The notes beneath the pieces were generated by a model. It was not told the DNA's origin. It was given only the letters and a program-made list of their open reading frames with translations, and did not search any database. This document shows, piece after piece, positions 1,812-11,563 of a stretch of DNA of 11,800 nucleotides; the stretch's first letter is position 1; every line of letters starts with the position of its first letter. The DNA lies in the UHGV virus genome UHGV-0208676, one strand, 5' to 3'. This DNA comes from a virus. The translations under genes and the position numbers were made by a program.

Positions 1812-2876
1812 ATGTCACAGAACTGGATGAGACATTTCGAGCTGCAGCTTGTGGACGGGAACGGTCAGGGAATTGAGCTAAGTGATTTCAAAGTCACCTT
1901 TACGATCGACTGGTTCAACATCAGCAGCGCGTCCCGGGTAGGGACTATCAAAATTTATAACCTCTCGGCAGATACTGTGAACCGAATTACCGGGCAGGAG
2001 TTTTCGAAAGTGCGTCTGATTGCCGGTTACGACGGTATCGCGCCGGAGGTGTCAGCAAGCGACGTAGGGACCGTGCGGGAAGTTGACGCGGCGGACGTGG
2101 GCCAGAGAGATGGCCGCAACTACGGACTGATTTTCAGCGGTGAAATTCGCTACTCGGTCACAGGAAAAGACAGTCCGGTTGATACCTACGTCCTGATTCA
2201 GGCAGCAGATACTGATCTGGCTTTTGCTACCAGTATAACCTCACAGACGCTGGCTGCCGGTTACACGGTCGCTGATGTGAACCGTGCGCTGATGAAAGAC
2301 TTCGAAGCCAAAGGCGCGACCGAAGGCCTGACGCCTGAAATGCCTGCTACTGTATTCCCTCGGGGGCGGGTACTCTTTGGCATGACGCGGCATCTAATGG
2401 ATAACGTAGCCGGACAATGTGGCGCAACATGGCAATTCGTGGACGGTCAGCGCCAGATGGTGGCGAATAACGAATATGTTCACGAAGCGATTGTGCTCAA
2501 CAGCGCTACCGGGCTTATTGGAATGCCGCAGCAGACTATCGGTAACGGCGTAAACGTCCGCGCGCTTATTAATCCGAACATCCGGGTTAACGGGCTCATT
2601 CAGCTGGATCAGGCTTCCGTCTATCGTACCGCGTTGTCGAACAACGATATTGCGATGGCTGGTGGTCAGATCACCGACCAGAACACGGACGGAAATATCA
2701 CGCTCAGCGGCACCACATCGCAGCCTGCCAGCATCGCAACGGATGGCGTTTATATTGTGCGCGGGATTATGTACACTGGCGACACAAGGGGCCAGGCGTG
2801 GTACATGGATATGATGTGTGAAGCGCGTGGCGCGGCGGATCTTGTTTCCTCATCAGCGAGGGAAAGAGGGCTTTAA
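1812..2876 (+). CDS. Putative baseplate hub protein (Mu gp44 / P2 gpD-like) of a contractile tail
   Basis: 354-aa ORF with a GGAG RBS 5 nt upstream, placed between tape measure and spike as in Mu-type tail modules, with similar size to Mu gp44. Assignment is by synteny and size, not by a recognised motif. Confidence 0.45.
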   Translation: MSQNWMRHFELQLVDGNGQGIELSDFKVTFTIDWFNISSASRVGTIKIYNLSADTVNRITGQEFSKVRLIAGYDGIAPEVSASDVGTVREVDAADVGQRDGRNYGLIFSGEIRYSVTGKDSPVDTYVLIQAADTDLAFATSITSQTLAAGYTVADVNRALMKDFEAKGATEGLTPEMPATVFPRGRVLFGMTRHLMDNVAGQCGATWQFVDGQRQMVANNEYVHEAIVLNSATGLIGMPQQTIGNGVNVRALINPNIRVNGLIQLDQASVYRTALSNNDIAMAGGQITDQNTDGNITLSGTTSQPASIATDGVYIVRGIMYTGDTRGQAWYMDMMCEARGAADLVSSSARERGL

Positions 2877-3208
2877 TGAAACGGTTATGTTTGGCGTTAG
2901 TTATGATGGTTACTGCTCCGGCGATGGCTGCAATTCAGTGCGGCAACTACACGATGACCGGTGACGGAATGACTGTTATTAACGGTGAAACTGTCACATC
3001 ACAGAAGATAAAATTTCTGGGAAAAGATGGTGACTATTCAAACATGAAAATGGACATGGGCCTGATGCCTTCCCGTGATGGTAACAATTACGGCTTTGAG
3101 TTTGTGAAACGTAACGGAAAAGCTTTCCTGAACGTCCAGCTGCTGCAGAACAGCATGGACGCGCCGAAAATCATTGGATCTTTCCCGTGTAAAAAGGCGT
3201 TACGCTAA
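2876..3208 (+). CDS. Small secreted protein (110 aa) with N-terminal signal peptide, possible moron
   Basis: N-terminus MKRLCLALVMMVTAPAMAA has a basic n-region, hydrophobic core and AxA signal peptidase I site; two Cys (mature N-terminal region and C-terminus). TAATG overlap with the hub gene stop. GC appears lower than the hub gene. Confidence 0.55.
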   Translation: MKRLCLALVMMVTAPAMAAIQCGNYTMTGDGMTVINGETVTSQKIKFLGKDGDYSNMKMDMGLMPSRDGNNYGFEFVKRNGKAFLNVQLLQNSMDAPKIIGSFPCKKALR

Positions 3209-3245
3209 AGTTTGATGTCAATCTTCCGAGATGAGCGCTTTAAGG

Positions 3246-3274
3246 TTGACGAGATATTGTTCAAAGTTCACAAT
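3246..3274 (+). promoter_or_regulatory. Candidate sigma70-like promoter for the inserted two-gene cassette
   Basis: TTGACG at 3246-3251, 17-nt spacer, CACAAT at 3269-3274 (weak -10, repeated once as cacaatcacaat), about 30 nt upstream of the 3304 start. Sequence pattern only. Confidence 0.25.
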
Positions 3275-3303
3275 CACAATCCCTTTAGTAAGAGAAATAA
3301 TCC

Positions 3304-4077
3304 ATGGCGGCAGGCATCCCATTAGAAAAAGCGCAAAAATATATTGAACAATTCAATGCGCTTCTATTGGATAGGGAAAGTTTAGATCCCTTCACTGAAA
3401 AGAAAATTCGAGAGGAACTTTCTGTCTCTCCAACGCCTGCTACCAACATTGCACTATCTTATCTGGATGCAATAACCGGAAAGATTGAAAGCGCGTTACG
3501 TTATCTCAGGATAAGCCTAGAAGTAAACGATGTAACGTTGGCAATGCACTATCATCACATTTTAATTAATACATTTAGCTATAATGAACTCAAGGATGTC
3601 TATGTCCCGCTGGCAAAGAAGTATCGGACAAAACTCTTTAGTCACAACGCATACAGTTGGGCGTACCGTTGCGGCGAGCGTGAACAGTTAAAATTTTATA
3701 TGGAAGAGCACATTAAGCTTCTTTCTGAATCAGAAGGCAGGAGTAATGCTATGAAGCACAAAGAAGAACTCCTTGCAGAAATGGATAATTTCTATAGCGC
3801 CACACAGTGCTCGAAGGAACAGTTCCAGACCTTAGCATCCATAATCTGGGGCTTGCTAAGTGAATACAAGGCTACGACAGGTTTCGTTCAGCTTAGTGGA
3901 AGCGGTTGCTATGTTGTTGATATTAAAAATCTTGAGCCTAAAACTATTGCCAAAATGAACTTCGACTTGGCTGATAGAGTCTGCGCTGAATCTAAACTGG
4001 ATGATTGTTCCCTGTTAGCTAGATTTACCTCTCCGCGTCAGTTGCATACGGGGGTGAGCTACCATGTCGGTAACTAG
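3304..4077 (+). CDS. Hypothetical protein (257 aa), first gene of an AT-rich accessory cassette
   Basis: ORF in a visibly AT-rich segment compared with flanking baseplate genes; preceded by a 95-bp non-coding gap; 14-nt overlap with the downstream gene. No catalytic motif recognised by eye. Confidence 0.7.
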   Translation: MAAGIPLEKAQKYIEQFNALLLDRESLDPFTEKKIREELSVSPTPATNIALSYLDAITGKIESALRYLRISLEVNDVTLAMHYHHILINTFSYNELKDVYVPLAKKYRTKLFSHNAYSWAYRCGEREQLKFYMEEHIKLLSESEGRSNAMKHKEELLAEMDNFYSATQCSKEQFQTLASIIWGLLSEYKATTGFVQLSGSGCYVVDIKNLEPKTIAKMNFDLADRVCAESKLDDCSLLARFTSPRQLHTGVSYHVGN

Positions 4078-4459
4078 CAATCAGATTCTCGATACCGCTC
4101 GATTATGTCTGTCTGAAAATATTGAGAGTGGATTTCGAAGCGCTATCTCAAGGGCGTATTACAGTATGTTACATGAGTCTATTAGCTCACTTACTGCCAT
4201 ACCGCATTTTACCCATGAGCATCACAAAAATACTGTGGGTTATATGTCAACGCCCTCAGAGTGCAAATCAGAGCCATACCCGACAAATACACTGAAATCC
4301 CTAGCTTTCGTACTTCGCCAGTGGCGGGATGCTAGAAATGAAGCTGACTATGATCTGACGAATGTGACTGTTTCGAAAGAGATGGGACAGGATGCAATCG
4401 AGGCTGCTGAACTCTATTTTGAGCGCTGGGAACAGCTAAAGTCTGCTAGAGTTTCATGA
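4064..4459 (+). CDS. HEPN-like protein (131 aa), second gene of the accessory cassette
   Basis: N-terminal helix motif SAISRAYYSMLHES and C-terminal LRQWRDARNEADYD resemble conserved helices of small HEPN-domain proteins, with Tyr where the canonical Rx4-6H histidine is expected. GGGGTGAG RBS; followed directly by an intrinsic terminator. Confidence 0.65.
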   Translation: MSVTSNQILDTARLCLSENIESGFRSAISRAYYSMLHESISSLTAIPHFTHEHHKNTVGYMSTPSECKSEPYPTNTLKSLAFVLRQWRDARNEADYDLTNVTVSKEMGQDAIEAAELYFERWEQLKSARVS

Positions 4460-4476
4460 ATAAAATTAACGTTATC

Positions 4477-4500
4477 AAACCCGCTTCGGCGGGTTTTTTG
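4477..4500 (+). terminator. Rho-independent terminator after the accessory cassette
   Basis: Stem AAACCCGC (4477-4484), loop TTCG, stem GCGGGTTT (4489-4496), then a T-run to 4499; sits 18 nt after the 4459 stop and upstream of the spike RBS. Confidence 0.8.
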
Positions 4501-4518: not shown

Positions 4519-5271
4519 ATGGCAGTATCTGACCAGACCCGCAGCGGCGACCTTGCCGAAACATTCAAATCTGAACGGGAAACAACAAAGAACCAGATCC
4601 GTGTCGCCTTGCCTGGCATTATTCAGTCATTCGATCCTGATGCGGTGACGGCAGTTGTGCAGCCTGCTATCCGTTCGGTTGAAAAGGATAATGACGGCAA
4701 CCGCATTACCAAAAATTACCCATTGCTGGTGGATGTGCCAGTGGTATTCCCGCGCGGCGGAGGATGTACGCTAACGTTCCCAGTTAAAGCCGGTGATGAA
4801 TGTTTGGTGATTTTTGCCGATCGTTGTATTGATTTCTGGTGGCAGAGTGGCGGGATACAGGAGTCGGTCGATGACAGAATGCATGATTTATCGGATGCGT
4901 TTTGTATTGTCGGTCCCCAGTCGCAGGCAAGGAAGATTAGCGGTATTAATACCAGTGCCACACAGTTGCGTAGTGATGACGGCAGCACCTATTTTGAGCT
5001 TAATCCTGATACCAGGAAAATTAAAATTGTCGCTCCAGGTGGTCTTGATGTGGTTGCCCCTCTGGCTGATTTTTCTGAGAAAGTAACCATTCATGGCCTG
5101 TTAACCTGGATGGGGGGCATGGTGGGGTCTGTGGTTTCTGGTGTGGCTTCAAAAATCACTGGTGCTGTTGAGTTCTTGGGGAGCGTGAAGGCTAACGGCA
5201 AGCCAATCGATGATACGCACACTCATGGTGGTGTTCAGCGCGGTGGAAGCAATACCGACGGAGTAAACTGA
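4519..5271 (+). CDS. Baseplate central spike protein (P2 gpV / Mu gp45 family)
   Basis: GGAG RBS 8 nt upstream; central region VVFPRGGGCTLTFPVKAGDECLVIF is typical of gpV/gp45 spike OB-fold region; C-terminus carries HTH (H-x-H) as in metal-binding spike tips; followed by W-, J- and I-like genes in canonical order. Confidence 0.8.
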   Translation: MAVSDQTRSGDLAETFKSERETTKNQIRVALPGIIQSFDPDAVTAVVQPAIRSVEKDNDGNRITKNYPLLVDVPVVFPRGGGCTLTFPVKAGDECLVIFADRCIDFWWQSGGIQESVDDRMHDLSDAFCIVGPQSQARKISGINTSATQLRSDDGSTYFELNPDTRKIKIVAPGGLDVVAPLADFSEKVTIHGLLTWMGGMVGSVVSGVASKITGAVEFLGSVKANGKPIDDTHTHGGVQRGGSNTDGVN

Positions 5272-5624
5272 TGCGATACAGACGTGAAGACGCCGATGGC
5301 GATTACACCTTTGGCAGCGGTGATGACACCTGGCTGATTAACTCACCGGAGGCCGTGGCGCAGGCGGTAAAAACGCGATTCGAATTGTGGTATGGGCAAT
5401 GGTTTCTCGACACCACCGAGGGGACTCCGTGGATCCAGTCCGTACTCGGTAAGCAGAAGCCGGAAACCTACAACCTGGCGATCCGTAAGCGCATCCTCGA
5501 AACGCAGGGCGTTAAATCAATCCTCTCTTTCAATACGACGCTGGATACCACGACCCGACGTGTCATGTTTTCCGCTGAAATCGACACTCTTTATGGAATA
5601 ACGACTGTTACATCGGAGGCGTAA
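5271..5624 (+). CDS. Baseplate wedge protein (gp25 / GPW-like, Mu gp46 position)
   Basis: 117-aa ORF with ATGA-type overlap to the spike gene, GGAG RBS; size and position between V-like and J-like genes match the gp25/W slot. Confidence 0.7.
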   Translation: MRYRREDADGDYTFGSGDDTWLINSPEAVAQAVKTRFELWYGQWFLDTTEGTPWIQSVLGKQKPETYNLAIRKRILETQGVKSILSFNTTLDTTTRRVMFSAEIDTLYGITTVTSEA

Positions 5625-6823
5625 TGGCTCTGAACCTTGATTCTCTCGGTTTATCTGCAAAGGTAACCGCAGAGGGGATCAGTGCGCCTGATTATCAGAC
5701 GATACTCAGCACCCTGATTAGCTATTTTCAGCAGATTTATGGCAGTGATGCCTACCTCGAACCGGACAGCAAAGACGGCCAGATGGTGGCTCTGATGGCG
5801 CTGGCGATTCATGATGCCAATAATACTGCGATAACTGTCTACAACTGTTTTTCACCGGCAACCGGCTATGGGGCTGCACTGACCAGTAACGTGAAAATAA
5901 ATGGTATTTCACGTAAAGGCGCGACGAACTCTACGGTTGATTTGCTTCTTACAGGAACTGCCGGAACAACCATCATTAATGGCAGCGTGAAAGATGGTAA
6001 TAATGTGATATGGCGTTTGCCTGCTTCAGTGGTGGTCGGCGTGGATGGTACAGTGATGGCGACCGCAACATGTTCCGTCAGTGGTGCAGTGGCGGCGCTG
6101 GCTGGAACTATCACTGAAATTAATACGCCAACCCGTGGCTGGGTTTCGGTAACCAATCCTGCTGCAGCTACTGTAGGCACTCCGGCAGAAACTGATGCGG
6201 AGTTACGTATCCGTCAGTCGCAAAGTGTTGCGTTGCCATCAATAACCCCATTTGAAGCACTGGATGGTGCTGTTTCTAATGTTACCGGTGTAACCCGCCA
6301 CAAACTCTATGAAAACGATACTGGTTCAGAGGACGGTAACGGGTTACCGCCACACTCTGTTGCTGTAATTGTGGATGGCGGTGATGTGACGGATATTGCT
6401 CAGGCTATCAGAGGAAATAAAGGCCAGGGGACAGCCACTCACGGTACAACATCCGTTACGGTTCCGGATAAATACGGCAATCCCCATGTAATCAAATTCT
6501 CGCGTTCCAGTGATGTGCCTGTTTATGCCCGGATTAAATTAAAAGTTTTTACGGGTTATACCTCACAGATAGGGCAGCAGATCCAGCAGGCTATTTCCGA
6601 CTATATCAATAGTCTGATGATTGGTGATTCGGTCCTTTTAAGTCGCATTTACTCACCGGCGAATCTTGGCGTGGTGAGTGGCGGGAATGCACGCTATTAC
6701 GATATTCAGGAACTGACGATTGGGAAATCCCCGGGGGCTTTGTCGTCATCAAACATTGATATCAGATACAACGAATCTGCGTCCTGTACCCCGGAAAATA
6801 TCGTTATAACGGTGGAGTCATGA
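5624..6823 (+). CDS. Baseplate J-like protein (P2 gpJ / Mu gp47 family)
   Basis: 399-aa ORF with GGAGG RBS 5 nt upstream; size and position after the gp25-like gene and before an I-like gene; Gly/Thr/Val-rich central region typical of J-family wedge proteins. Confidence 0.75.
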   Translation: MALNLDSLGLSAKVTAEGISAPDYQTILSTLISYFQQIYGSDAYLEPDSKDGQMVALMALAIHDANNTAITVYNCFSPATGYGAALTSNVKINGISRKGATNSTVDLLLTGTAGTTIINGSVKDGNNVIWRLPASVVVGVDGTVMATATCSVSGAVAALAGTITEINTPTRGWVSVTNPAAATVGTPAETDAELRIRQSQSVALPSITPFEALDGAVSNVTGVTRHKLYENDTGSEDGNGLPPHSVAVIVDGGDVTDIAQAIRGNKGQGTATHGTTSVTVPDKYGNPHVIKFSRSSDVPVYARIKLKVFTGYTSQIGQQIQQAISDYINSLMIGDSVLLSRIYSPANLGVVSGGNARYYDIQELTIGKSPGALSSSNIDIRYNESASCTPENIVITVES

Positions 6824-7500
6824 GCAAATACACCGAACTAATCACGAACTACCACGCCACCAAACCTAAATTTCTTGCGCATGTTGATCTGATGACCCGG
6901 CCGCTTATTGATGTTGCGGCGGCCACCAGAGGGTTGATTACTGCATTTGATATTGACTCCGCGGTTGGTGTGCAACTTGACATTCTTGGATTGTGGATCG
7001 GACGTAGCCGTGTTGTCAGCCAGCCTATCTCAGGTGTCTATTTCAGCTGGGATACCGACGGGCTTGGATATGATCAGGGTGTATGGCAGGGGCCATACGA
7101 TCCTGATTCCGGATACATGTACCTCAGCGATGAAACTTATCGTGTCATCCTTAAAGCGAAGATTGCGATTAATAACTGGGACGGACGGAATGATTCGCTT
7201 CCGGTAATTCTTGACGCGGCAACAGCAGGATCCGGGCTGCGAATGCAGATAGTCGATAACCAGGACATGACGATATCGGTCTGGGTCTTTCCTGATACTG
7301 ATATTTCAGATGTATCGCGTGAGTTAATTGCGGCAATTAAACAGGGGTATCTAACAGTAAAAGCCGCCGGGGTATGGGCGGGGGGCATTGAAACACCTTC
7401 GGTGGAAACTCCATCGGAAGGCTCTAAATTTTTTGGTTTTGATATGGATAACGAATTCATCAGTGGTTTTGATGTAGGGGCATGGGGAGTATTACTCTGA
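6820..7500 (+). CDS. Baseplate wedge / tail-fibre attachment protein (P2 gpI-like, Mu gp48 / YmfQ-like position)
   Basis: 226-aa ORF overlapping the J-like stop by 4 nt (ATGA) and overlapping the fibre start (TGATG at 7498-7502); canonical position between J and the fibre. Confidence 0.7.
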   Translation: MSKYTELITNYHATKPKFLAHVDLMTRPLIDVAAATRGLITAFDIDSAVGVQLDILGLWIGRSRVVSQPISGVYFSWDTDGLGYDQGVWQGPYDPDSGYMYLSDETYRVILKAKIAINNWDGRNDSLPVILDAATAGSGLRMQIVDNQDMTISVWVFPDTDISDVSRELIAAIKQGYLTVKAAGVWAGGIETPSVETPSEGSKFFGFDMDNEFISGFDVGAWGVLL

Positions 7501-9920
7501 TGGCAAAAAATGACTTTAAAGCATTCGCAACGGGTAAAAATGCCAATGTTATGTCGCAGGAGGAATGGGAAGCGTTGCCTGCGCTTTTATCCGGATTTAC
7601 AGCAGGGAAAGCATCCAGTGCGCAAGTCAATAAGGTTATTCGGCAGGCCAGCTTTATTGCTGCAGCTCTGGCCCAGTTTGTAAGTGACAAAACGCAACGG
7701 GATGTGCTTGATAATGGTGATCTGCCCGGTTTTGTTGAATTGCTGGGATCGGGGTTTGCTGTTGAATACCTGAGCCGCAAGAATCCGTTTGGCGATATCA
7801 AATCGGATGGCACGGTAGAACGCGCTCTTGAAAATCTGGGGTTACAGGATGTAAAAGCTGGTTCATTGAACAATCTGTACACTAACCATTCCCGTAGTGT
7901 CTTAATGGAATTGCCGTTATTATTCCCAGACTACGATACAGTGCTGGCTGCTCAGTCTGGTGCGGAATATATGTATCCACAGGGATTTGTGGTGACAGGA
8001 GAAAAAATCTATCTGAGTTATACCGTTGAGCCAAAGCAGACACGGAACGTTATAGTTCAGTACACAACATCCGGCGAATATGAGGGATATTATTATGTCG
8101 ATAATGGAGGTCGTGGCGTTGTCAGCGAAGGCCTTGTGGTGACAACGGATTACGGTGGATTACGTTTGTTCATGTCAGGAGAAAATGGATTACTGAAACA
8201 GTTTTCGCTTGATGGGGCAATTTCTGGTTCAGTATTGCCGTTAATTGATGAACATGACGTCGGTGTTTACAACCAGTTCAGCTATCGTAAAAACCGCTGG
8301 GTGGTTGAACAGTCAGCGCCGGAAGTGGGAGGCCTGATCACCCGCACAGTATTTGCGGTGTATGATTTTCAGTTTCGTCGGACGGGGACATTCACATTAC
8401 CGTTGCATGATTCCGGATATATCACGGAAAGCACAGACAGCTATGCAAGACGCTTCACAAAACGTCAGGGAATTGCTGTGGGAGACGATTATATTGCCTG
8501 TTCTTATGGTGGCTATTTTAATACCGGGGCATCAGCCGGATTTAACCAGTTTCAGGGGGTTAAGGTCTTTTCTCCGGATGGAGTAAAGCTGCAGGAATCC
8601 ATTCTTCATCCCCAAAAAATGATAGATGTGCTTACCAGCCAGGGTTTTACACCTTCGCGCATTGAGAACGAAGGAATTTGTATTTCTGACGACGGCGGCA
8701 GTATATATTCGCTTTATATCTTTCTGGAGCGTGGGTTACCACAGGCTTATCAGAAAGGAATTGTTCTGATGAAAGAGTTCAGTACTGGCAGAGATGCTAT
8801 TGATTTTCGTCAGGCAGCCTGGTTGTACACGGGGTTTGATGTGTCTCATGCCAGTATTGGAACATTTCCCCGTAGTGCCCAGGGGTTGGTAAATCCGGTG
8901 CTGGGGACTGTATTCACATCACTGTCTGAAATTCTGGCATATATGCGCTCTGTGAGTCAGAAATGGTTTTGTCTGCATACAACCACGACACCGATTAAAG
9001 ATCTGAGTGGAAATGATATTCCTGCTGACAATTATGTGTTCATCAAGAATGCTAATAACCAGACATTCTATATAACGCAGGAGTCAGCTGAAGGTGGAAT
9101 AAAATATAAAGCTGTCACCACAGGCAGCGGAGAATATGGTTTTCAGCGACAAAGAGAGGCAACCTGGTCCAATGTTATCACCATCGCACAAAAGAGCGAT
9201 GGTGAGGACCAGTTTAATCGTATTGTTGCCGCATCGAAAAGTGGTTCAGGTAACAATCAGGATAAAATACTGGTAGTTGACCAGCAGGCATCAGAGGGGA
9301 ATAACACACTGATAATTGGCGGTGCTTCATCTGTGTTCAGGTCAGCGACAGTGATTGATTTTGCAACGAATCAGGATGCAAATGCCACTGGAGGAGAAAA
9401 AAGATGGCGCATAGATTCATCAGGAAATCTCCGCCCTTATACAGATAATACGTATTCGATCGGTTATGCCTCATGGCGACCCGCACAGGTTTATGCAGCT
9501 ACAGGAAGTATCAGTACATCAGACCGGACTCGTAAACAGGACGAAACAATTCTGTCGGATGCAGAAAAAAGGGTTGCCAGAAAGTTGCTCGGGTATATCT
9601 GTCGGTTCCGTTTCAGGGATGCTGTGTCCAGCAAAGGGAATGCTGCCAGATGGCATGTAGGAGTGATTGCCCAGGACGTACAGAAGGTATTCTCTGAGGA
9701 AGGGCTGGATGCTTTTGATTACGGTATTTTGTGTCGTGATGAATATCCGGCGGAATATGAAGTGGTTTACGGGACTCGTATGGAGCTTGGTCCTGATGGA
9801 CTCCTTGCAATGGAAGAATACGATACCGGAGAGCGTAAGCTGGTCAGGGAGGCTGGCGAAATAATGTCTGTAAGGAATGATGAGCTGCATTATTTCATGT
9901 TGGCATCGCTGGCCAGTTAA
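7500..9920 (+). CDS. Tail fibre / tailspike protein with C-terminal intramolecular chaperone (peptidase S74-like) domain
   Basis: Start placed at ATG 7500 (GGGGAG RBS 10 nt upstream, TGATG coupling) rather than the ORF-track 7482. Conserved fibre N-terminal anchor (FATGKNANVMSQEEWEALP...KVIRQASFIAAALAQFV). C-terminal 133 aa (9519-9917) has S-D-x3-K (STSDRTRK) and GVIAQDVQKVF motifs typical of auto-cleaving chaperone domains. Confidence 0.75.
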   Translation: MAKNDFKAFATGKNANVMSQEEWEALPALLSGFTAGKASSAQVNKVIRQASFIAAALAQFVSDKTQRDVLDNGDLPGFVELLGSGFAVEYLSRKNPFGDIKSDGTVERALENLGLQDVKAGSLNNLYTNHSRSVLMELPLLFPDYDTVLAAQSGAEYMYPQGFVVTGEKIYLSYTVEPKQTRNVIVQYTTSGEYEGYYYVDNGGRGVVSEGLVVTTDYGGLRLFMSGENGLLKQFSLDGAISGSVLPLIDEHDVGVYNQFSYRKNRWVVEQSAPEVGGLITRTVFAVYDFQFRRTGTFTLPLHDSGYITESTDSYARRFTKRQGIAVGDDYIACSYGGYFNTGASAGFNQFQGVKVFSPDGVKLQESILHPQKMIDVLTSQGFTPSRIENEGICISDDGGSIYSLYIFLERGLPQAYQKGIVLMKEFSTGRDAIDFRQAAWLYTGFDVSHASIGTFPRSAQGLVNPVLGTVFTSLSEILAYMRSVSQKWFCLHTTTTPIKDLSGNDIPADNYVFIKNANNQTFYITQESAEGGIKYKAVTTGSGEYGFQRQREATWSNVITIAQKSDGEDQFNRIVAASKSGSGNNQDKILVVDQQASEGNNTLIIGGASSVFRSATVIDFATNQDANATGGEKRWRIDSSGNLRPYTDNTYSIGYASWRPAQVYAATGSISTSDRTRKQDETILSDAEKRVARKLLGYICRFRFRDAVSSKGNAARWHVGVIAQDVQKVFSEEGLDAFDYGILCRDEYPAEYEVVYGTRMELGPDGLLAMEEYDTGERKLVREAGEIMSVRNDELHYFMLASLAS

Positions 9921-10115: not shown

Positions 10116-10442
10116 TGGATTTTGCTGCGCCAGCGTGGCGTGAATTTCCGAAGCCTGACTGACAGTATTGATACCAGTACCCCAATGGGCCGTTTCTTTT
10201 TTCATGTGATGGGTGCCCTGGCTGAAATGGAGCGTGAACTGATTGTTGAACGAACAAAAGCTGGACTGGAAGCTGCTCGCGCACAGGGACGAATTGGCGG
10301 TCGCCGTCCCAAACTTTCACCAGAACAATGGGCACAGGCCGGACGATTAATTACATCAGGAGTTCCTCGCCAGAAGGTGGCGATCATCTATGATGTTGGC
10401 GTATCGACTTTGTATAAGAAGTTTCCGGTCGGAGATAAATGA
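10116..10442 (+). pseudogene. DNA invertase (Pin/Gin/Hin serine recombinase family) remnant, C-terminal part only
   Basis: Translation VNFRSLTDSIDTSTPMGRFFFHVMGALAEMERELIVERTKAGLEAARAQGRIGGRRPKLSPEQWAQAGRL...STLYKK matches the C-terminal half of Pin/Gin-type invertases including the HTH region. The frame hits an in-frame TGA at 10113-10115 and the upstream translation has no invertase-like sequence, so the N-terminal catalytic Ser region is absent. The ORF-track start at 10122 is a TTG. Confidence 0.8.
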
Positions 10443-10740
10443 AACCGCAGCACGTCGTATGCAAGAACGTGCCACGGCTGGCTGATGGACGTTCGATAGC
10501 GCGAGTTTGAATGAAAATCAGCCGGAGATGATTTTACATAATTGCTACGGAATTATTCAATACAGGGATTGCTTGTGTCTGCATGGATTGACCTGAAATA
10601 GTCCCGAAAATTTCTCTAAAAAACTCGAAAACAATGGTAACTAATTGAATGTATTAATATGCAATGGTACGTGTTTGGGATTAAAAGATGAACGTGATTT
10701 TGTTTAACACATTAATTTTAAATGATTTTCTTGTTTGTTG

Positions 10741-10772
10741 ACGAAAACAGGAATCGTGTTCGGTCTCTTTTT
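10741..10772 (+). ncRNA. sdsR: Fragment resembling the 3' terminator hairpin of sRNA SdsR (RyeB); possible prophage attachment-site duplicate
   Basis: CGAAAACAGGAATCGTGTTCGGTCTCTTTTT resembles, from memory, the SdsR 3' end (CGAAUACAGGAAUCGUAUUCGGUCUCUUUUU) with a few mismatches. Sequence just upstream does not resemble the SdsR 5' part as I recall it. In E. coli K-12 the sdsR/ryeA locus lies next to pphA. Confidence 0.4.
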
Positions 10773-10906
10773 ATCTGTTAAAAGCCAGAAGCATTCCCTT
10801 CGCTGACTTTATAGTCAACCATAACACACACTCTACTGTCTGAGTCCAGCGTTTTTTAACATTCTTGTTAAGATTATGTGATCTTTAGCGCGGGAGGAAA
10901 ATATTG

Positions 10907-11563
10907 ATGAAACAGCCTGCGCCCGTTTATCAGAGAATTGCGGGTCATCAATGGCGACATATCTGGCTTTCAGGCGATATACACGGTTGTCTTGAGCAGT
11001 TGCGCCGCAAATTATGGCATTGTCGTTTTGATCCGTGGCGAGATTTACTTATCTCAGTGGGAGACGTTATCGATCGTGGGCCGCAAAGTTTACGTTGCCT
11101 GCAGTTACTGGAACAACATTGGGTTCGTGCGGTAAGAGGCAATCATGAACAGATGGCGATGGATGCGCTGGCATCCCGGCAGATGTCTTTATGGTTGATA
11201 AATGGCGGCGACTGGTTTATTGCGCTGGCAGATAATCAACAGAAACAAGCGAAAACGGCGCTGGAAAAATGTCAGCATTTGCCCTTTATTCTTGAATTAC
11301 ACAGTCGCACCGGCAAACATGTTATTGCTCATGCCGATTATCCAGATGATGTCTATGAATGGCAAAAGGACGTCGATTTGCATCAGGTCTTGTGGAGCCG
11401 CTCGCGATTAGGTGAACGCCAAAAAGGGCAGGGAATTGCAGGTGCTGATCATTTCTGGTTTGGTCATACACCTTTGCGCCATCGCGTGGATATTGGCAAC
11501 CTGCATTATATTGATACCGGTGCTGTCTTTGGGGGAGAACTGACTCTTGTGCAATTGCAATAA
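10907..11563 (+). CDS. pphA: Serine/threonine protein phosphatase 1 (PP1/lambda-phosphatase-like metallophosphatase)
   Basis: Motifs GDIHG, GDVIDRG and GNHE present; 218 aa from ATG 10907 (GGAGG RBS about 9 nt upstream; the ORF-track 10904 is a TTG one codon earlier). N-terminus MKQPAPVYQRIAGHQWRHIWLSGDIHGC matches my recollection of E. coli PrpA; convergent with a yebW-like gene as in K-12. Confidence 0.85.
   Translation: MKQPAPVYQRIAGHQWRHIWLSGDIHGCLEQLRRKLWHCRFDPWRDLLISVGDVIDRGPQSLRCLQLLEQHWVRAVRGNHEQMAMDALASRQMSLWLINGGDWFIALADNQQKQAKTALEKCQHLPFILELHSRTGKHVIAHADYPDDVYEWQKDVDLHQVLWSRSRLGERQKGQGIAGADHFWFGHTPLRHRVDIGNLHYIDTGAVFGGELTLVQLQ

Follow-up and report, generated by a model that had tools for sequence, protein, structure and literature searches.

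A TPR-HEPN gene pair in the baseplate operon of SEN34-like prophages: a mobile accessory cassette and candidate two-component defence system

Within an 11,800-nucleotide stretch of the virus genome UHGV-0208676, referred to throughout as the window, two overlapping genes (A and B, Table 1) lie in a tail and baseplate operon, immediately upstream of the gene for the baseplate central spike. Gene A encodes a protein with a TPR array and gene B a small protein of the HEPN superfamily, and sequence comparisons indicate that the pair is a horizontally acquired, self-contained mobile moron. On genomic grounds there is strong evidence that the module is mobile and accessory, and HEPN candidates in prophages are now common. 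With regard to function, we consider the chances to be about even that A and B constitute a two-component, HEPN-based defence of the abortive-infection or toxin-antitoxin-like kind, with B as a ribonuclease (RNase) effector and A as a sensor or inhibitor in the place of MNT. A more specific proposal, to which we lend somewhat less than even credence, is that this is an undescribed prophage-borne two-component immunity system, in which a TPR sensor replaces the MNT antitoxin and gates an AF0298-type HEPN RNase with a relocated histidine, and that the slot occupied by the pair is a hotspot for defence cargo with a shared terminator hairpin as its exchange border.

The anatomy of the two genes is as described in the original prediction, which was made from the sequence alone: the open reading frames lie on the plus strand, overlap by 14 nucleotides and are preceded by a gap of 95 bp (3209-3303). 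The Shine-Dalgarno sequence for gene B, GGGGGTGAG, sits within the 3' end of gene A, and the overlap suggests that the two genes are translationally coupled. As had also been noticed, the cassette is more AT-rich than the baseplate genes on either side, with a G+C fraction of 0.42 (3209-4476) compared with 0.538 upstream (920-2876) and 0.496 downstream (4519-7500). It represents the lowest-G+C stretch of 1.27 kb in the window, about 1.9 standard deviations below the window mean. The gap upstream of gene A contains a predicted sigma-70-type element (Table 1), and in an Aeromonas Mu-like module (locus L015) TTGACG-17-CACAAT recurs with unchanged spacing to the start codon of gene A. Around ten further copies carry -35/-10 pairs that match the consensus at 9-10 of 12 positions and are located 41-62 nucleotides (mostly 57-62) upstream of gene A. 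Of the features by which a moron is recognised, the terminator and the deviant base composition are confirmed, and the promoter is predicted from a consensus match and its conservation with the cassette.

The strong intrinsic terminator proposed downstream of gene B is readily recognised (-13.1 kcal/mol, z = -3.1 on folding), although it is not private to the cassette, since the same hairpin follows every alternative cargo of the slot that was examined. Nearly all copies of the cassette have an AACCCGC-loop-GCGGGT(n) structure 13-27 nucleotides downstream of gene B, and a compensatory variant of the stem (CCCAGC/GCTGGG) is found in lambda-like loci. A predicted promoter together with a terminator inside a late operon suggests that the pair is expressed in the lysogen, as morons that protect the host typically are. 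The hairpin is situated about 20 nucleotides upstream of the spike gene, inside the expected late tail operon, and is retained in all relatives whatever the cargo.

Horizontal acquisition, which had been suspected from these features, is supported by comparison with related prophages. When a 1.9-kb query was matched to complete E. coli genomes, 304 gave matches, and in 27 of these at least 80% of the query is covered, that is, the A and B cargo is present. Most close relatives thus lack the pair and have other genes at this site, and it is not the conserved structural component of all homologous prophages that would have spoken against the original prediction. Homology with relatives that have other cargo ends in the last codons of the 110-residue gene on the left and resumes at 4474-4487, inside the terminator hairpin, which coincides with the right recombination border. 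The final 3-5 codons of the left-border gene vary with each type of cargo. It had been anticipated that the hub and spike genes would be adjacent in some relatives, yet none of those examined shows this arrangement, as the slot is always filled: with a flank-only query, the two flanks joined into a single match in 41 genomes, none of which had an empty slot.

Homologs of A and B co-occur in the Enterobacterales and in Aeromonas. Copies in Yersinia and Rahnella occupy the same slot as in the window. In Aeromonas bestiarum (L015) the pair, whose A protein is 73% identical to that of the window, belongs to a true Mu-like module, where it separates the tape-measure gene from the DNA-circulation gene. 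Among 69 IMG/VR loci retrieved by B patterns, 50 have the gene in the SEN34-like slot and 19 have it elsewhere. The other positions include sites in siphovirus tail, lambda-like (M and L), lysis-terminase and replication regions; among them are those between the tail tube and tape-measure genes, between the lambda-type tape-measure gene and gpL, after a gpK-like NlpC/JAB gene, between lysozyme and terminase genes and near replication protein O. Taken together, unrelated phage backbones provide at least six further sites at which the cassette occurs, complete with promoter-like element and terminator, and it is therefore a mobile moron rather than a part of the virion. All contexts found here are phage or prophage, and no plasmid copy of the pair was matched.

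The two genes travel together. Gene A is directly upstream of B in 65 of the 69 viral loci and in all six enterobacterial genome loci; of the remaining viral loci, two are cut by the end of the contig and two have an unrelated partner of 276 residues. Assignment of this partner to the A family was considered for one locus (L083) and was not supported. The pairwise identities of A and of B are strongly correlated (r = 0.94), and A is the faster-diverging protein in 97% of comparisons.

That one product of the pair is HEPN-like, as the original prediction proposed, is supported by modelling as well as by profile searches. The AlphaFold model of B (pLDDT 89.6) has AF0298 (2hsb) as its top Foldseek match (TM-score 0.68/0.71, probability 1.0), followed by the sacsin HEPN domain, 1wol and 2q00. 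When compared with the PDB, the profile of the B family matches the HEPN proteins 9xbd (E 2.6e-6) and 2hsb (E 2e-3), and PF05168 scores relatives below threshold (19.6 bits, with a cutoff of 22). On the basis of the model and these matches we are confident that B adopts the four-helix bundle of the HEPN superfamily. Gene B is not called by PGAP in E. coli BH100N (L001, 5278-5720) despite 100% identical DNA; close homologs in other records are annotated, some as 'HEPN domain-containing protein'. More distant B-like genes occur in a proteobacterial metagenome-assembled genome and in Methanobrevibacter, where the neighbouring genes are uninformative.

Within the HEPN superfamily, B retains the arginine of the catalytic motif (R91), has lost the motif histidine and possesses a second conserved histidine (H54), a pattern that places it in the AF0298-like HEPN-T clade as far as motifs can indicate. 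In close relatives H53-H54-x-N56 is invariant within the helix 2-3 insert, and in the model H54 is located in the region of a loop (43-53) and a short helix that separates helix 2 (21-42) from helix 3 (74-95). The same combination of a retained arginine, a lost histidine and a second histidine in the helix 2-3 insert has been described for AF0298-like HEPN-T proteins and AbiV, for which an alternative active site was proposed (Anantharaman et al. 2013, PMC3710099). Residues conserved in at least 90% of the 36 diverse cassettes are E21, R25, S29, R30, Y32, Y33, H37, H54, R91, D95 and Y96. Conservation of charged and polar residues is the criterion applied by Anantharaman et al. to active HEPN versions (PMC3710099), and this constellation argues for an active enzyme over an inert scaffold.

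The second product, in which the original prediction saw no recognisable domain, does contain one. The N-terminal half of A consists of TPR-like helical repeats (approximately residues 7-139), in which tandem helix-turn-helix units match TPR profiles and structures. Two long helices (146-187) follow, and the C-terminus forms a beta-beta-alpha-beta domain (192-242) with no solved relative. A search of 1.84 billion representative proteins gave 121 clusters for the A family, nearly all of 240-290 residues and with the length of A constant at about 250-260 residues, so that there are no informative fusions. Alignments of A, including those of the 36 diverse cassettes, revealed no family-wide conserved polar or catalytic-looking residues, and the protein is consequently most likely to be non-enzymatic. 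We considered whether the C-terminal domain might be a degenerate MNT nucleotidyltransferase and rejected this, since it is favoured by neither profile nor fold comparisons and the family does not conserve the acidic residues. Likewise, A has no match to the nucleotidyltransferase fold, no G[GS]...DxD motif (G[GS]x9-13DxD) and no conserved acidic pair. The MNT partner that was looked for is absent, so A and B are not a HEPN-MNT pair. Among GenBank phages a single record, Klebsiella phage ST405-OXA48phi1.3 (L095), has an A homolog (43% identity). The region downstream of this homolog (3319-3662) is annotated as two short open reading frames, and gene B may be disrupted or mis-annotated in this phage.

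We envisage that A and B would be transcribed in the lysogen from their own promoter, with the transcript ending at the hairpin before the spike gene. A would be translationally coupled and made first, and as a non-enzymatic TPR protein it would bind B and keep it silent, thereby holding the place taken by the MNT nucleotidyltransferase in classical HEPN-MNT pairs. In this scheme B, from the AF0298-like HEPN-T clade, acts as a small RNase in dimeric form, whose active site may be formed by R91 together with H54 as an alternative to the Rx4-6H histidine, with possible contributions from D95, Y96 and E21. Recognition of a protein of the infecting phage by the fast-evolving TPR half of A could then release or activate B, and cleavage by B of RNA from the host or the phage would bring the infection to an abortive end.

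Several observations weigh against a defence function of this kind. B does not have the canonical Rx4-6H histidine: the motif region reads R88-D-A-R91-N-E-A-D95-Y96, and the histidine position is occupied by D or Y in all members of the family that were aligned (22/22 and 36/36). We know of no demonstration of RNase activity for the AF0298-like clade, and B could be a non-catalytic binding module. Searching the locus for known defence systems, as the original prediction recommended, gave no match for A or B in PADLOC-DB v2.0.0 at E <= 1, and neither protein has a significant match in Pfam or NCBIfam, defence and toxin-antitoxin models included; relatives do give weak, sub-threshold matches to the PADLOC model HEPN_IX (E 3e-4 to 0.05). 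A lacks the DNA-binding domain typical of autoregulating type II antitoxins. The candidate promoter matches the consensus at only 9 of 12 positions, and the scan gave no more such sites than shuffled sequence does (3 found where 3.9 were expected by chance). Co-divergence of A and B is to be expected from the linkage of adjacent genes alone. Finally, the family is present in only 6 of 185,579 species-representative genomes, a rarity that fits a niche moron and offers little comparative power.

Comparison with characterised systems helps to place the pair. The AF0298/UPF0332 proteins (2hsb and the unpublished 9xbc and 9xbd) resemble B in their four-helix fold (TM-score about 0.7), in the motif variant SRAYYxM...H; RNxxDY, and in the absence of the motif histidine with retention of the arginine and of a conserved histidine in the helix 2-3 insert. 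Classical members of this group, however, pair with MNT, whereas the partner of B is a TPR protein of 257 residues, and B is only about 19% identical to 2hsb. HEPN-MNT systems (HepT/MntA, type VII) also consist of a two-gene operon in which the partner precedes an overlapping small HEPN gene, and the logic of a neutralised HEPN RNase would be common to both. In contrast, B is not of the DUF86 type and lacks Rx4H, and A has no nucleotidyltransferase features, so neutralisation by AMPylation is not expected.

Two prophage HEPN proteins provide functional analogies. HepS of Gifsy-1 is activated by the tail-tip protein of an incoming phage and cleaves tRNA (PMC13043305), and Tha of S. aureus phages is activated by tail proteins of the incoming phage and cleaves RNA/tRNA (PMC11087260). 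Like A and B, both are accessory genes of temperate phages, and their functions have been established experimentally. They differ in being single proteins with canonical Rx4-6H, while in the present case sensing would fall to a separate TPR protein. HepS was not among the matches of the B profile search.

The association of a repeat module with an effector is seen in AbiU2 with its Sel1-repeat gene, the LA2681 HEPN with TPR, BcTir/BcTpr and the TPR sensors of Avs/STAND systems, and in such pairs the TPR or Sel1 repeats are presumed or have been shown to sense or regulate (PMC3710099; preprint 10.1101/2023.05.26.542521). These examples involve other HEPN families; in the case of A and B there is no STAND NTPase, and A has an additional C-terminal alpha/beta domain. 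As a genomic element, the cassette resembles the morons of HK97 and lambda and the P2/P4 prophage defence hotspots (Rousset et al. 2022, PMC9122126): it has a terminator and a predicted promoter for its own transcription, its base composition is deviant, close relatives may have or lack it, and one fixed position accommodates various cargos. It differs in that the slot lies inside a SEN34-like baseplate operon and has a shared terminator hairpin as its right border. Literature searches returned no description of a pair formed by TPR and AF0298-type HEPN proteins or of a baseplate hotspot, although an earlier description is still possible, and neither 9xbc/9xbd, TPR-HEPN nor the RefSeq accessions of the two proteins led to a relevant paper.

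Three other explanations of the cassette were weighed against a defence role. It is possible, although we regard it as unlikely, that the moron benefits the phage in some other way, by counter-defence or host manipulation, in which case B would be an inert HEPN protein with RNA or nucleotides as its ligands, and A would serve as an adaptor whose targets are host proteins. The loss of the canonical Rx4-6H histidine would fit this, as inactive HEPN binding modules are known (PMC3710099), and so would the restriction of the pair, as seen here, to phage and prophage contexts and the failure of any defence model to match it. Strong conservation of the charged and polar residues of B (E21, R25, R30, H37, H54, R91, D95 and Y96) speaks against this explanation, as does an arrangement of predicted promoter and terminator that suggests expression in the lysogen.

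A shade less probable again is a plain toxin-antitoxin addiction module, in which A as antitoxin counters B as toxin, and which serves to maintain the prophage or the cassette in the lineage with no sensing of phage. Such a module would account for the gene order, which is that of MNT-HEPN pairs, with a small HEPN toxin-like gene downstream of an overlapping, probably coupled partner, and for strict pairing, co-divergence and movement among many elements. On the other hand, A is large, TPR-based and devoid of DNA-binding or nucleotidyltransferase features, its faster divergence suits recognition better than simple neutralisation, and no match to a plasmid was obtained. This explanation also overlaps with the proposed defence, as many toxin-antitoxin pairs are defence systems. 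A role for A and B as assembly or structural accessory proteins of the tail or baseplate can be nearly excluded: most copies do lie inside tail or baseplate gene clusters, but the pair is missing from most close relatives, where unrelated cargo takes its place, it also occurs at non-tail sites (the lysis-terminase and replication regions), it has a promoter-like element and terminator of its own and deviant G+C, profile searches assign neither protein to a virion family (an outcome that the original prediction had singled out as counting against it) and PHROGs place both only in families of unknown function, and HEPN and TPR folds are not, to our knowledge, known as virion components.

The proposal that the slot is a hotspot draws on the diversity of its contents. 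At least seven alternative cargos are found in E. coli relatives, and representatives are listed in Table 1. In the second, strongly diverged family of TPR and HEPN-like pairs, the B proteins are homologous to B of the window (E 1e-6 to 1e-10), and their A proteins show weak C-terminal similarity. The single-gene cargo WP_001551481.1 appears in the DefensePredictor supplement under the label 'predicted novel defense gene' (log-odds 9.44), has remote similarity to ApeA-like HEPN and carries an Rx4H-like motif, R-N-N-L-F-H. This 170-residue protein was also considered as a homolog of B and rejected (hhalign probability 0.1%). A is not among the DefensePredictor supplement entries listed. For the cargos of 79, 138 and 121 residues, no PADLOC or Pfam match was obtained other than DUF4282. 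Within the searches made, this putative hotspot between the 110-residue gene and the spike gene of the SEN34-like baseplate operon appears to be undescribed.

Table 1. The cassette, its control elements and borders, and alternative cargos of the slot. Positions refer to the window unless a locus is named.
Feature	Position or locus	Strand	Description
Gene A	3304-4077	+	257 aa, ATG start; phrog_17809
Gene B	4064-4459	+	131 aa, ATG start; phrog_5176; HEPN fold, AF0298/UPF0332 (HEPN-T) type
Sigma-70-type promoter-like element (predicted)	3246-3274	+	TTGACG-N17-CACAAT; consensus match 9/12; about 30 nt 5' of gene A start codon
Intrinsic terminator	4477-4500	+	AAACCCGC-UUCG-GCGGGUUUUUU; 8-bp stem and UUCG loop at 4477-4496, then T-run
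Left recombination junction	3196-3213		homology with other-cargo relatives ends (blastn end points 3195-3213)
Left-border gene, backbone, not cargo	2876-3208	+	110 aa; N-terminal signal-peptide-like segment; phrog_3443
Right-border gene, baseplate central spike, conserved backbone	4519-5271	+	N-terminal spike domain and GpV apex motif
Slot cargo: diverged A/B-like pair	TL20		258 + 123 aa; B annotated 'HEPN domain-containing'
Slot cargo: second TPR + HEPN-like pair family	L003 2059-3218; L006 1807-2960; L007 1746-2905		243 + 142 or 130 aa
Slot cargo: single protein WP_001551481.1	L004 1909-2421		170 aa; at least 25 genomes, E. coli GTEN_23; also phage vB_EcoM-606R2
Slot cargo: DUF4282 membrane protein	L005 1963-2202		79 aa; about 17 genomes
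Slot cargo: membrane or secreted protein	SEN34; L085 906-1322		138 aa; N-terminal transmembrane or signal segment; SEN34 gp21-like
Slot cargo: reverse-strand gene	L086 913-1278	-	121 aa

The nearest named phage to the backbone of the window is the Salmonella phage SEN34 (genus Brunovirus), and the window is part of a SEN34-like (Brunovirus) E. coli prophage with a myovirus tail and baseplate operon. The original prediction took this for a Mu-type tail module, which it is not, as the set of genes resembling Mu gp42-48 (DNA circulation, gpP/gp44, gp45, gp46, gp47 and gp48) is not present. The tail and baseplate genes are co-directional across the window and include those for a Dit-like protein, a Pam3-gp18-type plug, an E217-gp41-like hub and the 110-residue signal-peptide protein, as well as the GpV-apex spike, a sheath-initiator/W-like protein, Baseplate_J and DUF2612. 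The cassette does not directly follow the hub gene, as had been supposed, since the left-border gene intervenes. This gene is labelled 'STY1065/STY2022 family phage-derived protein' in some RefSeq records; its product contains two cysteines and is conserved in the backbone, in a position between the hub and the slot. A search of the window against Rfam gave no RNA family.

A prophage of E. coli BH100N has 100% DNA identity to the cassette region, and the window diverges from it downstream of DUF2612. At this point BH100N has a shorter fibre and an assembly protein, unlike the window, which encodes a tail fibre or spike of 812 residues (7482-9920) with a C-terminal Peptidase_S74 intramolecular chaperone domain. 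Further downstream is a truncated serine recombinase or invertase (10122-10442, TTG start) that comprises the C-terminal part of the resolvase domain and HTH_7, and is followed by a very AT-rich stretch (10500-10900, G+C about 0.34). This is probably what is left, at the end of the prophage, of an invertase of the Pin/Hin type that switched fibres. Beyond the tail module, positions 10904-11563 encode a calcineurin-like metallophosphatase of 219 residues that resembles the lambda-type Ser/Thr phosphatase.

Even if no phenotype is associated with it, the cassette represents a textbook moron that brings a terminator and a predicted promoter along as it moves from one phage backbone to another, and it raises the question of how late transcription of the tail operon gets past so strong a hairpin directly before the spike gene, possibly by antitermination. 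If the pair is a working defence, a compact 1.3-kb architecture of TPR sensor and HEPN effector would join the catalogue of such systems, and the cargo hotspot in the baseplate operon could be mined for others, given that at least one further cargo is a defence gene predicted by machine learning. HEPN proteins of the AF0298 type, which are known mainly as partners of MNT, would then be real effectors with a relocated active site, and the pair would offer a new sensor-effector architecture and, for the first time, a way into the function of the AF0298-like HEPN-T clade.

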